From Acidovorax sp. (GTDB lineage: Bacteria > Pseudomonadota > Gammaproteobacteria > Burkholderiales > Burkholderiaceae_C): a DNA stretch of 64,000 nucleotides. This document shows positions 23,592 to 28,541 of this stretch, piece by piece. The stretch is from positions 4,745 through 68,744 of the forward strand of contig NZ_JBKDRI010000159.1 of NCBI RefSeq assembly GCF_046341535.1, given 5' to 3'. Both the position numbers and the translations under genes were made by a program. Numbering within the stretch: position 1 is the stretch's first letter; every line of letters begins with the position of its first letter. Under the pieces are notes generated by a model that was given only the letters and a program-made list of their open reading frames with translations, searched no databases and was not told where the DNA came from.

Positions 23592-24377
23592 TCAACGATG
23601 AAGCTTGTTGACCGGCGATCTGACAAAGCTGGCGGCCAGCCCCAGCGTCGCGAGAGAAACGATGACACAGGCACCACTGGGCCAGTCCATAGTGCCCGAA
23701 ACCGCAAGCCCAACCCCACACGCCAGCATGATCGTCGCAGAACGTTGGAGAAGCCCCCAACCTTGCAGGCCAAGCCACGCAGGCACGATCAGAGCGGCAA
23801 ACACCAGCCACAAACCCAGCACGCCCACGGCCAAGCTGGCGACTACAGCAAACCATACGTAAAACGCCCAGTCGCCCCATGGAGCGGCCTGTTGCCAGCG
23901 TGCCATGACACTCTGCCAAGCGTAGCCCAGCATCACCAGTGAAGCCATGAGTCCGACTTGGGGCCAGTCGGCCCACAGGACATCGGCGGCCAGCAGTTCG
24001 CTCAGGTGTTCCCGTCCGTGTGGATCCTGGCTTGCCCCTAGCACGGACAGGCCAGCACCAAGCACGTACACCAGCCCGATGAGGGCTTCACGTTGAGCCG
24101 GGTGGCGGCGCGCTAGATGTTGCACCCAACCGACCGCCACCAGCGCCCCCACCAGCGCTGCACCACGCACACTCCAAGCGCCAGGGTGGTCCTGCCACCA
24201 GATCCACCACAATGCCGCAGCCGCTGCCGCTTGCGCCACAGCCAGATCGATAAACACCACACCACGGCGCAGCACCTGTTCGCCTAGTGGAGCTAGCGCC
24301 ATCAGACCCAAGCCCAAAGCGAGCAACGGAGGCAACCACCAAGGCAACGCCATCAACAAGTTTTCCAAGTTCATCAA
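23592..24377 (-). CDS. Metal ABC transporter permease (ZnuB/ABC-3 like)
   Basis: LGEQVLRRGVVFIDLAVAQ and REALIGLVY; multiple TM helices. Confidence 0.82.
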   Translation of the reverse strand: MMNLENLLMALPWWLPPLLALGLGLMALAPLGEQVLRRGVVFIDLAVAQAAAAAALWWIWWQDHPGAWSVRGAALVGALVAVGWVQHLARRHPAQREALIGLVYVLGAGLSVLGASQDPHGREHLSELLAADVLWADWPQVGLMASLVMLGYAWQSVMARWQQAAPWGDWAFYVWFAVVASLAVGVLGLWLVFAALIVPAWLGLQGWGLLQRSATIMLACGVGLAVSGTMDWPSGACVIVSLATLGLAASFVRSPVNKLHR

Positions 24378-24395
24378 GCAGACCCATCTGCCAGA

Positions 24396-25346
24396 TCAGC
24401 GTCCACCAGCGGCTGCAGAGAGCTCGGACAATATGCGGTCAAACCACCGCTCCAAGGCCTCCGGATGACTGGCATCATCCACCGTCGCGGGCAACACCAA
24501 CAAGGGGGCCTTGCCTTGAAGCTGCTGGGCTAACCAGCGTGCCGAGCGGTCATCCTGATACCCGGCCACCACGATGGCTGCAGGTGGGTCGGTCAGCAGG
24601 CCATCACGCAAAGCGCCCAGGTGCCCCGGGGTGGGCGGCATGCCAGGCTTGGGTTCTAAATCGGCCACCATTTCGATGCCCAGCCAATGCCAGAGGTAGC
24701 CAAATGTGGTGTGCTGACCGGCCACTTTGCGACCTTTCAGCAAACGCCCCTGCTGGCTCCAGCGCGCAATGTGCCGTTGCCAGCGTTCGTCCCAAGCCTT
24801 GTGTCTTGCCGCCACGTCGCTGGCTTGCGCCGGAAAGAGCGTTGCCATGCGTTCAGCCAATGCTTTTGCCGCTTGCGCAACACGGCGCGGGTCGGCATGC
24901 AGATGCGGGTTGCCTTCGGGGTGTACGTCGCCCGCAAAGGGGTTCAATGTGACGGGCCTAGGATCAATCAGGCTGACATGGTCGGCCGCATAGAACATGC
25001 CCGCCTGGCCGTCCTGCACCTTTCGATTAGCCGAGCGCTGTTGCAGGATAGGCAGCCAACCGGCCTCCAGTGCCGCTCCCGTGCACACTGCCAGATCGGC
25101 GCTGCGCATCTGTGCAATCAGCGCTGGGCGGGCCTCAATGTGGTGAGGGTCTTGCTTGGCATGGGTCGCCACGTGTACTTTGGCGTTTGGCAGGAGCACG
25201 CGGACCAGCGCGGCCCATTCGGGCTCACAGGCAAACACCGTGGTGGCTCCCGCCTGGGCCGTGGCGATCCCCAAGCCAATAACCACCGCCAGTTGGCGAA
25301 GCCATCCGCAGCCACCTGTAGGAGACGATAGCCACTTGGATACCAT
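24396..25346 (-). CDS. Cluster A-I metal-binding periplasmic protein (ZnuA/TroA like)
   Basis: QDPHHIEARP, DVHPEGNPHLHADP, QHTTFGYL, EPKPGMPPT; start uncertain. Confidence 0.88.
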   Translation of the reverse strand: MVSKWLSSPTGGCGWLRQLAVVIGLGIATAQAGATTVFACEPEWAALVRVLLPNAKVHVATHAKQDPHHIEARPALIAQMRSADLAVCTGAALEAGWLPILQQRSANRKVQDGQAGMFYAADHVSLIDPRPVTLNPFAGDVHPEGNPHLHADPRRVAQAAKALAERMATLFPAQASDVAARHKAWDERWQRHIARWSQQGRLLKGRKVAGQHTTFGYLWHWLGIEMVADLEPKPGMPPTPGHLGALRDGLLTDPPAAIVVAGYQDDRSARWLAQQLQGKAPLLVLPATVDDASHPEALERWFDRILSELSAAAGGR

Positions 25347-25356
25347 GTATGAACAG

Positions 25357-26514
25357 TCAGAAGCTGTGCGCACCATGGGCTCCAAAGCTAAGTATGTAGT
25401 GCAATTGCACAGACCGTTTAACCGCGCCTTCCACCCCTTTCGCGCCAGACTGGCCGGTCAGTTGCAGCCGCACCGTCTGGGCATGGGTGGGTTTGTAGGC
25501 CACCATCAACGACTGTTCGCGCAGGCGCACGTTGTGAAAGTGGTCGCCATGTGGGCTGCGCGCCTTCAGCCAGTCCAGCCGCACACCGGCTTCCCACGGG
25601 GCCGCCCAGCGCCACACCGCCATCAGCGACTGTGCTTCGTGCGTGTCGCTGCTGCGCGCATGGCGGTTGATGCCGCTAACGCGTGCCCATTCGCCCACCA
25701 CTTTCAGCTGGCGCTCGCGGTTGTTGCCGTCAGGCGCCCATTTCCACGCGGCATCCAGCAGCACCATATTGCGCCCGCTGAAGGCTGCACCGTGTGCATG
25801 CCCATGGTCATGGCTGTGGTCATGCCCCGCCTCACCGCCGTCGGCACCCTCTTCGTGCTGGGCGGCCTCACGGCGGTTGTGCAACCAGGCCGCACCCAGC
25901 TGCCAGCTTTGGGAACGGCCCCAGTCGTCACCCAGCTTGGCACTGAGCGTGAGGGCACCAGGGCTGCGGGCACGGGCGGCCTCTTTCACCAGTTGTTTGC
26001 CAGTGAAGATTTCGAGCCCTGTGCGCAGGTAGAAAGGGGTGGGTGCCGTCCAGTTCACGCGCACACCGTCGTCAAACCAGTGCCCGCCCAAGAAGGCACG
26101 GTACAGCAGCGGGCGCTCGACAAAGTCATCGGCATGCGGGTGCTGCTCGTTTAAATAGCCAATTTGCGACGGGAACCTTCCTGCACGCACCTGTAATCCC
26201 ACTGGTAGCGAGCGCGTCTGCAAATACGCCTCTTCTAGCTCGGCCTCCACCTTCCCGTCGTGGGCGTGCGCCGCCACGGTGAAGCGGGCTTCGAGTGCCT
26301 GCCCCACAGGGCCTGCAGCACTCAGATCGCTGTGACCCAATTGCAGGCCTTTTTCACGCTGGCCCAAGGCCAGCCCGCGCGATGTGTGGGCCACATCCAG
26401 CACGGCACCAACACCCCAGCCACCAGGCTCGGCGGCTTGTGTAGCCTGGGCCATGCTCAAACACACCAGCGCCGCTGCCACCGAACATGGCGAAACAGGT
26501 TTGCGTGCTCTCAT
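25357..26514 (-). CDS. His-rich outer-membrane beta-barrel protein
   Basis: Signal peptide; HPHADDFVERP; HDHSHDHGHAHG loop; alternating beta-strand pattern; C-terminal GAHGAHSF. Confidence 0.72.
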   Translation of the reverse strand: MRARKPVSPCSVAAALVCLSMAQATQAAEPGGWGVGAVLDVAHTSRGLALGQREKGLQLGHSDLSAAGPVGQALEARFTVAAHAHDGKVEAELEEAYLQTRSLPVGLQVRAGRFPSQIGYLNEQHPHADDFVERPLLYRAFLGGHWFDDGVRVNWTAPTPFYLRTGLEIFTGKQLVKEAARARSPGALTLSAKLGDDWGRSQSWQLGAAWLHNRREAAQHEEGADGGEAGHDHSHDHGHAHGAAFSGRNMVLLDAAWKWAPDGNNRERQLKVVGEWARVSGINRHARSSDTHEAQSLMAVWRWAAPWEAGVRLDWLKARSPHGDHFHNVRLREQSLMVAYKPTHAQTVRLQLTGQSGAKGVEGAVKRSVQLHYILSFGAHGAHSF

Positions 26515-27899: not shown

Positions 27900-28083
27900 C
27901 GTGAGAGTTGCGCCTCGCGCCCGGTGATCGAGGCGTCGATGTTGACCTCGCTCATGTCATTGACGATGACTGCCACGCGTCGGCCCTCGCGATTGCGCAG
28001 CACGTGGTTGAGCAGAGATGTCTTGCCGACACCCAGAAAACCCGAGAGCACGGTGACCGGAAGGCGTGATTAAGGTATGCCAT
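27900..28083 (-). pseudogene. Truncated and frameshifted COG0523 (ZigA/YciC/CobW-like) GTPase
   Basis: [48 protein letters not shown] 28083 is out of frame with it; homology ends before the CxCC motif. Confidence 0.85.
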
Positions 28084-28089
28084 CTTAAT

Positions 28090-28109
28090 GATAATGGAAT
28101 CCCATTATC
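28090..28109. promoter_or_regulatory. Fur-family-like operator palindrome
   Basis: GATAATGG-AATC-CCATTATC (8-4-8 inverted repeat) between the divergent metal operon and regulator. Confidence 0.7.
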
Positions 28110-28157
28110 GTAACATGACAAAATCTGGCCTGTTTCAGTTTCACATCAAACCATCTC

Positions 28158-28541
28158 ATGTCCCAGGAACGCAGCACCCGCCAGCGCGCCGCGATGCGAG
28201 CCGTCATCGAGGCAGCCGGGCGCCCCCTCTCTCCACAAGAGATCTGTGCAATGGCGCAATCCGAGGTCCCAGGTTTAGGCACAGCGACCGTCTATCGCAA
28301 TCTCAAGCTGATGGTGGAGGCTCGCGAAATCGAGCCTGTGGTTTTGCCCGGCGAAGGGGCGCGGTACGAACCCACGCACCATGGTCATCATCACCACTTC
28401 CAGTGCAACGAATGCAAGCGCGTATTCGACGTGCATGAATGCCCTGGAGACTTGGACCGTTTGGCGCCTAAAGGCTTCACCGTCGAGCGACATGAACTGA
28501 CCCTTTACGGACGCTGCGATGAATGTGCTGCACCCAAGTGA
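28158..28541 (+). CDS. Fur-family metalloregulator (Zur/Nur-like, distinct from core fur)
   Basis: STRQR, ATVYRNL, HHGHHHHFQCNEC and LYGRCDEC. Confidence 0.9.
   Translation: MSQERSTRQRAAMRAVIEAAGRPLSPQEICAMAQSEVPGLGTATVYRNLKLMVEAREIEPVVLPGEGARYEPTHHGHHHHFQCNECKRVFDVHECPGDLDRLAPKGFTVERHELTLYGRCDECAAPK

Follow-up and report, generated by a model that had tools for sequence, protein, structure and literature searches.

How can a bacterium take up a metal with a periplasmic binding protein and a membrane permease when the operon that encodes them has no ATPase? This question is raised by positions 23592-28541 of the window, a 64,000-nucleotide stretch of contig C159 (NZ_JBKDRI010000159.1) from an Acidovorax sp. 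draft genome of 3.3 Mb (203 contigs, 98% complete). Five minus-strand reading frames in this interval encode, in order, a stub of a COG0523 protein, an AztD-like protein, a porin-like outer-membrane barrel, a ZnuA-type binding protein, and a ZnuB-like permease, and a Fur-family gene is divergent from them. The initial annotation had read the same order from the sequence, with a histidine-rich barrel, a dedicated Fur-family regulator, and no ATPase. Family searches bore out the gene order and identities, and the operon contains no ATPase gene. Importers of the ATP-binding cassette (ABC) type are defined by ATP-driven transport. With moderate confidence, drawn from comparative sequence analysis, we propose that this operon encodes a zinc importer that works without ATP, depends on a binding protein, and is controlled by Zur; the version seen here, that of the Burkholderiales, would also include an AztD-like chaperone. 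The relay had been thought either to borrow an ATPase in trans or to need none. We favor the second option, and find less support for the first, because the helix of the permease that couples to the ATPase is deleted throughout the family and because genomes that have only this type of permease lack ATPases of the ZnuC type.

An ATPase-free trio conserved across Proteobacteria

We refer to the co-linear genes of the porin-like barrel, the ZnuA-type binding protein, and the ZnuB-like permease as the trio. A search of 40 relatives recovered the permease in one sister genome (96% identity) and otherwise, at 34-40% identity, in other families of the order. A pattern scan with one genome per GTDB species revealed at least 588 relatives, of which the best 80 were examined with flanks of 8 kb. 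Together with 8 loci from the first search, this amounts to around 90 loci (homologous loci are numbered with an L and their genomes with a G). The open reading frames (ORFs) of the loci in all six frames were scanned with a hidden Markov model (HMM) of ABC ATPases, made from 47 ATPase domains encoded in this genome, and searched by tblastn with the proteins of the window.

The porin, binding protein, and permease genes are co-linear in every surveyed locus long enough to show it, and the hosts include Beta-, Gamma-, and Alphaproteobacteria as well as one member of the Desulfobulbaceae. If intact homologous loci routinely included the ATPase, the copy in the window would, according to the initial annotation, simply be decayed. 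The HMM scan of the flanks found no dedicated or unpartnered ATPase beside the trio in any of the approximately 90 loci. Few ABC ATPases lie within about 3 kb of it, and those that could be characterized belong to canonical znuC-znuB-znuA sets or to exporters. The former is the case in L029 and L040, where the ATPase is part of a complete set with a full-length ABC-3 permease and its own ZnuA. The latter holds for L037 and L069 (ABC-2 exporters, each encoded with its membrane partner) and for a second ATPase in L040 (an exporter of the MacB/FtsX type). In L054, an uncharacterized ATPase is found next to zur, at the same position as in L029. This is thus a large family in which a dedicated ATPase is nowhere near the trio, by conservation and not by decay. 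The comparison with the sister genome also revealed purifying selection on the trio, with ratios of nonsynonymous to synonymous substitution rates (dN/dS) of 0.11 for the porin, 0.11 for the binding protein, and 0.15 for the permease, at dS values of 0.05-0.14.

We also considered that some other conserved neighbor might energize transport. Clustering of the flanking ORFs of all loci returned, as conserved neighbors, only the Fur-family gene, small leader-type ORFs, and generic matches, and we rejected this candidate.

Two loci have particular layouts. The closest named relative is L112, which comes from an uncultured Rhodoferax and encodes a permease with 79% identity to that of the window. 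Ten genes follow each other at positions 365-10353 of this locus, in the order znuC-znuB-znuA-COG0523-aztD-porin-binding protein-permease-COG0523-thioredoxin-like gene, the last with a zinc ribbon, so that the classical and the ATPase-less systems stand in one co-directional array. L019 (genome G027, positions 4157-9871) has a tandem duplication, in the order porin, binding protein, small ORF with a histidine motif, porin, binding protein, and permease, and hence a single permease for two pairs of porin and binding protein.

The permease and the missing motor

The permease (261 amino acids, 23592-24377, minus strand) is the sole gene of the genome matching PF00950, the ABC-3 family. Taken alone, it matches this model over its last third only (E-value 8e-6), and the model matches the whole family of trio permeases with a best E-value of 2.3e-24. 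Each trio permease is matched in two pieces, around 3-148 and 166/170-255, with profile positions around 149-168 skipped. When a profile of the trio permeases is aligned with Escherichia coli ZnuB (9oko_B), a 19-residue gap opens opposite ZnuB residues 137-155, beside or overlapping the coupling helix. Cryo-electron microscopy of the E. coli protein has shown that the cytoplasmic extension of transmembrane helix 5 (TM5), together with the coupling helix alpha2 (residues 154-162), makes the main contact with ZnuC (PMC12236471). The canonical ZnuB proteins encoded in the same genomes as two of the trio loci have, at this point, an 18-residue insert that is absent in all trio permeases; the permease of the window keeps four of the 18 residues.

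The structural model agrees with the alignments. The AlphaFold2 model of the permease (alignment of 70 sequences, predicted local distance difference test score, pLDDT, of 90.5) has nine membrane helices and the periplasmic alpha1, as in ZnuB. TM5 (138-164) is followed by a three-residue turn and by TM6 (168-187), with no helix between them. The best match of this fold by Foldseek is PsaC, with a template modeling (TM) score of 0.70, followed by BtuC, which is the membrane fold of type II ABC importers. In other words, the membrane fold expected of an ABC-3 importer is there and the coupling helix is not. Residues D44, E97, and D231 are invariant among the trio permeases and shared with canonical ABC-3 proteins, and the canonical histidine of TM2 is replaced by a glutamine (Q49). 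A maximum-likelihood tree separates the trio permeases from six canonical ones with 100/100 support and places the permease of the window in a Burkholderiales subclade of 25 members, also with 100/100 support. The coupling helix, on which an ATPase would dock, is missing from the whole family of trio permeases. Public annotations call its members 'metal ABC transporter permease' or 'zinc/manganese transport system permease protein'.

A cognate ABC ATPase of the ZnuC, AztA, or PsaB type was found neither in the operon nor in the draft genome. No ATPase of this genome reaches the cut-off of the AztA or ZnuC models, and the best score with the AztA model, 135 bits, belongs to a CysA-like protein. 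The part of the contig in the window encodes one ABC ATPase, a BtuD-like protein (20538-21344) that has its own BtuC-like permease, and this gene is also the best match in the genome to the ZnuC of a relative (32% identity). The unpartnered ABC ATPases that we checked with family models are of the LolD, LptB, and PotA/FbpC types. The remaining ones are ABC-F-like or UvrA-like, judging by length and domain count, or lie beside another ATPase or at the end of a contig. We thus rejected an orphan ATPase from elsewhere in the genome as the motor. Sixteen genomes were then compared for ZnuC-like ATPases, defined as matches to NF007090 with an E-value of at most 1e-30. Such ATPases are present only in genomes with a canonical ZnuB, and adjoin its gene in two of three such genomes. 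The seven genomes that have only the trio permease, including the one analyzed here, have no ZnuC-like ATPase, and one of these genomes is a complete chromosome of 3.1 Mb (G042).

These data bear on the possibility that the trio is part of a conventional ABC importer served in trans by an ATPase, namely the BtuD-like protein encoded 2.2 kb away, ZnuC where it is present, or another shared ATPase. ATPase sharing does occur among some ABC importers, and the permeases of the ABC-3 and FecCD families have a common type II fold. The BtuD-like protein is the second-best match to the AztA model as well as the best match to the ZnuC of the relative (132.7 bits; 32% identity). Complete znuCBA sets lie beside the trio in the close relatives L029, L040, and L112, and an ATPase is also found in L054. 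We nevertheless regard this explanation as unlikely. The coupling helix, which any nucleotide-binding domain would need, is deleted family-wide, and the genomes with only the trio permease lack ZnuC-type ATPases. The BtuD-like protein has a partner, since its gene and that of the BtuC-like permease share an overlapping stop and start, and its adjacency to the zinc operon is not conserved in the approximately 90 loci. Furthermore, the pairing of binding protein and permease is highly specific in zinc systems (PMC7731109).

Outer membrane, periplasm, and the choice of metal

The ATP-independent importer that we propose would begin at the outer membrane. The barrel (385 amino acids, 25357-26514, minus strand) has a signal peptide, and its AlphaFold2 model (alignment of 54 sequences, pLDDT 89) has 16 strands. 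A long loop between strands 5 and 6 points inward, at the position of the L3 loop of porins, and bears N122, H125, H127, D130, and F131, which are invariant or nearly so in the family (motif N-x-x-H-x-H-x-x-D-F). The histidine-rich stretch GHDHSHDHGHAHG (residues 227-238) connects strands 9 and 10 as a disordered loop, and the C-terminus, GAHGAHSF, is conserved. The constriction motif of histidines and aspartate, together with the histidine-rich surface loop, suggests selectivity for cations, and notably for zinc. The best matches in the PDB are OprP/OprO, Omp32, and OmpC-type porins (TM scores of 0.5-0.6, 7-14% identity). The barrel thus resembles the 16-strand substrate-specific porins OprP/OprO and Omp32 in its predicted architecture and its inward L3-type loop, and differs from them by its constriction motif and surface loop. 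It is assigned to no Pfam or NCBIfam family, hence to no curated porin family, the top match being BBP2 at an E-value of 0.05. Of its 959 homologs, nearly all are nameless or go by 'hypothetical protein', and Pfam recognizes a domain in none of them. The porins of distant members of the trio family have an N-terminal coiled coil that the subclade of the window lacks. To our knowledge, the known Zur-regulated routes for zinc across the outer membrane are TonB-dependent receptors (ZnuD, ZnuK/M).

The binding protein (24396-25385, minus strand) is the sole PF01297 gene of the genome (E-value 1.9e-29). The histidines of its DPHH, NPHLH, and QHTTF motifs align with the ligand positions of Lmb, Synechocystis ZnuA, and AdcA, which points to a three-histidine site typical of the zinc-specific proteins of cluster A-I. 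It is, in family and predicted metal site, the kind of ZnuA/TroA protein expected of an ABC-3 importer. The TTG start given for this ORF (25385) overlaps the end of the porin gene, and an ATG located 13 codons downstream (25346) precedes a typical signal peptide. The latter is probably the true start.

The AztD-like protein (436 amino acids, 26511-27821, minus strand) is a predicted lipoprotein with the lipobox VTAC. Its NF038015 score, 83.5 bits, falls short of the cut-off of that model (400). The protein matches the structures of AztD, 6cmk (E-value 7e-15) and 6ck1 (6e-13), and retains the DHGDH motif. AztD holds periplasmic zinc as a reservoir and hands it to AztC (PMC7731109). The COG0523 frame (27818-28051, minus strand) has 77 codons, of which around 52 at the N-terminus match ZigA/CobW and include the Walker A motif GVGKT; the rest is unrelated sequence running into the start of the aztD-like gene. 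The similarity extends a few codons upstream, to position 28066, past an in-frame stop. The stub is 85% identical to residues 8-59 of the COG0523 protein of L040, covers positions 5-57 of the 390 of NF038288 (a ZigA-type GTPase model), and lacks about 1.1 kb relative to the full-length copy in L112. It has neither a full G3E GTPase domain nor a CobW_C domain and, on this reading of the frame, is a pseudogene. As COG0523 heads the operon in relatives and is reduced here to a stub of 52 codons, it is not required.

The Fur-family regulator (127 amino acids, 28158-28541, plus strand) matches PF01475 (E-value 2.6e-20) and carries an HHGHHHH motif and two CxxC pairs. Its orthologs, with 55-68% identity, adjoin the same operon in at least 14 relatives, and in L029 znuC, znuB, and znuA follow the zur ortholog on the same strand. 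An operator-like perfect palindrome of the 8-4-8 type, GATAATGG-AATC-CCATTATC, lies in the divergent promoter region (28090-28109), and the candidate target sequence of the Fur-family protein is GATAATGGAATCCCATTATC. Where zur adjoins the operon in relatives, the intergenic region almost always contains a similar AT-rich palindrome at the equivalent position, for example TGATAATGCCATATCATTATCA or TATTGCGAATGCGTTCGCAATA. The locus thus has, in its sequence, both the repressor and the palindromic promoter operator expected of a Zur regulon, and the regulator is probably Zur. The only other Fur-family gene of the genome, around 63288-63638 on the minus strand (68032-68382 of the contig), is 28% identical to it and is presumably the housekeeping Fur.

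Regulation is different in distant members of the family, where small DUF2946-like ORFs precede the operon instead of a Zur gene. In L017, L019, L020, and L021, ORFs of about 103 codons with a signal-like N-terminus and histidine motifs stand before the porin gene and weakly match DUF2946 (best E-value 1.3e-4). Leader ORFs of this type are known from copper regulation. Downstream of these leaders, which resemble those of the CruR/CutF type, the distant members have the same core of porin, binding protein, and permease. The window and its Burkholderiales subclade differ in using a Fur-family repressor with an operator; there is no leader ORF here. Substrate and control may therefore differ across the trio family. 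The context of Zur, AztD, and COG0523 observed here ties at least the Burkholderiales branch to zinc.

The initial annotation had proposed a relay for zinc or, because of the nearby B12 locus, for cobalt or nickel. Zinc is most likely the metal, since the predicted three-histidine site, the AztD homolog, the ZigA-type stub of COG0523, and the Zur orthologs that head znuCBA in relatives all point to it. The link with cobalt, nickel, or corrinoids was rejected, the B12 neighbors not being conserved and the types of binding site and chaperone indicating zinc. The genome also encodes an importer of the ZIP/ZupT type, which would make the trio the high-affinity route.

The B12 neighbor itself is real. 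Positions 19317-23059, on the opposite strand, encode a BtuC-like permease of the FecCD family, the BtuD-like ATPase, and the cobyric acid synthase CobQ, a block for corrinoid uptake and biosynthesis whose adjacency to the zinc operon is not kept in the loci of relatives. It is separated from the permease gene by a stack of miniature inverted-repeat transposable elements (MITEs) in the stretch 23100-23460 (the stack itself at 23110-23453), which bounds the 3' end of the operon and is outside the transport system. These repeats occur in 80-100 copies in the genome, a very high load for 3.3 Mb. Of the borders described initially, the MITEs on the permease side stood up to analysis and the transposase remnant did not: 28542-28964 and 23453-23593 gave no Pfam match, no tblastn match to plasmids, and no repeat. 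On the side of the regulator (28965-34109) lie a thioredoxin-like gene, such as also follows the zinc island in L112, and then, on the minus strand, a resistance-nodulation-division (RND) efflux pump of 1053 amino acids and a membrane-fusion protein.

A putative ATP-independent zinc importer

The working model is as follows. When zinc is plentiful, the Zur-type repressor, placed on the 28090-28109 palindrome, would shut both promoters, as the position and conservation of the site suggest. When zinc is scarce, the four proteins would be made. The predicted 16-strand porin may then capture Zn2+ with its histidine-rich surface loop and pass the ion through the N-x-x-H-x-H-x-x-D-F constriction. 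By homology, the AztD-like lipoprotein would store periplasmic zinc and load the binding protein, as AztD does with AztC. The three-histidine binding protein would dock on a dimer of the ZnuB-like permease, and the latter, for which no motor was found, may admit Zn2+ without ATP hydrolysis, with D44, E97, and D231 as candidate acidic residues of the pathway. The likely driving force would be the membrane potential, inside negative, together with the extremely low concentration of free zinc in the cytoplasm, and the permease would act either as a uniporter gated by the binding protein or as an ion-coupled carrier. That a ZnuB-type clade has turned in this way into an ATP-independent zinc channel gated by a binding protein, or into an ion-coupled carrier, with a metal-selective porin of its own, is in our estimation an evenly balanced proposition.

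Several points weigh against this model. ATP independence rests on an absence and on one structural deletion. A small ATPase gene might have fallen into an assembly gap of this draft of 203 contigs, which is not so for the complete genome G042. The permease may have a non-canonical cytoplasmic partner, be it an ATPase from an unrelated family or a different protein, that docks elsewhere on it, the conserved L(3,4) loop being one such place. As the full ZnuCBA stands directly beside the trio in L029, L040, and L112, the trio might work together with ZnuC or ZnuB in these relatives. The pattern GATAATG-N6-CATTATC has one site in the 3.3-Mb genome, at the operon, and chance alone would yield about one. 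The weight of the operator therefore rests on its position and conservation. Finally, given the DUF2946-type leaders of the distant members, parts of the family may have a substrate other than zinc.

A different explanation for the missing motor is that the system does not import zinc into the cytoplasm at all. The permease might be an anchor or a sensor for the binding protein, or the operon might manage zinc in the periplasm and at the outer membrane, by buffering, by metallation of envelope enzymes, or by export. This would fit with the lack of an energy source, with the ZIP/ZupT-type importer encoded in the same genome, and with the role of AztD as a periplasmic zinc reservoir (PMC7731109). 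We consider it quite unlikely, since the permease is under purifying selection and keeps the full nine-helix transport fold with the conserved D44, E97, and D231 and with Q49 at the canonical histidine position, and since its invariable association, under control of a Zur-type repressor, with a binding protein of the high-affinity type and a pore of its own follows the logic of uptake. As for a decayed ZnuABC or AztABCD locus that recently lost its ATPase and most of COG0523, a clear COG0523 pseudogene, MITEs abutting the permease, and a closest named relative with znuCBA and an intact COG0523 immediately upstream speak for it, but we rejected it as very improbable because the ATPases of relatives belong to separate, complete ZnuCBA sets while the trio has none in around 90 loci from four classes, because the low dN/dS values indicate that its genes are maintained by selection, and because the deletion of the coupling helix is common to a whole clade that is split from the canonical permeases with full support.

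The proposed ATP-independent importer combines features of several known systems. It resembles ZnuABC (E. coli; ZnuBC structure 9oko), PsaABC (7kyp), and MntABC in its three-histidine ZnuA-type protein, the nine-helix type II fold of its permease, closest to PsaC, and its probable Zur-type control. It differs from them in having no ATPase gene, no TM5 extension, and no coupling helix, and in the glutamine that replaces the TM2 histidine; its operon also adds a dedicated porin gene, and its permeases form a clade separate from canonical ZnuB. With AztABCD of Paracoccus denitrificans it has in common a gene for a putative AztD-like chaperone accompanying those for a cluster A-I binding protein and an ABC-3-type permease, as well as probable membership in a regulon of zinc limitation. 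In contrast to that system, the operon of the window has no AztA ATPase and includes a porin, and its AztD homolog is distant and a predicted lipoprotein. The tripartite ATP-independent periplasmic (TRAP) and tripartite tricarboxylate (TTT) transporters embody the same proposed principle, in which a membrane component that has no ATPase receives its substrate from a periplasmic binding protein. There is no homology between them and the trio, whose membrane protein has the ABC-3 type II fold rather than that of DctQM- or TctAB-type components, whose substrate is a metal cation, and for which no coupling ion is known.

The initial annotation had regarded the locus as a candidate for an under-described transport architecture. 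Within the incomplete coverage of the full-text literature available to us, which included a comparative paper on COG0523 proteins, we found no description of an ATPase-less ZnuA/ZnuB system. This type of zinc-uptake operon is widespread and, as it seems, undescribed. Since databases label its components 'metal ABC transporter permease' or 'hypothetical protein', metabolic and regulon reconstructions will miscount the trio as an incomplete ABC system. The genomes that have only the trio offer natural backgrounds for clean tests of the module, with Ramlibacter montanisoli, Pseudorhodoferax sp. Leaf265, and Undibacterium spp. as cultured candidates. The locus presents the architecture of an ABC-3 zinc importer without its motor, which would become a new class of transporter if ATP independence were proven. 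If the proposal is true, zinc crosses the outer membrane through a porin dedicated to it, and the membrane fold of ABC importers is able to serve as a facilitator or as a secondary carrier after discarding both the motor and the helix that docks it. The trio would then stand beside TRAP and TTT as a third class of binding-protein-dependent secondary transporters, and the first for a metal cation.

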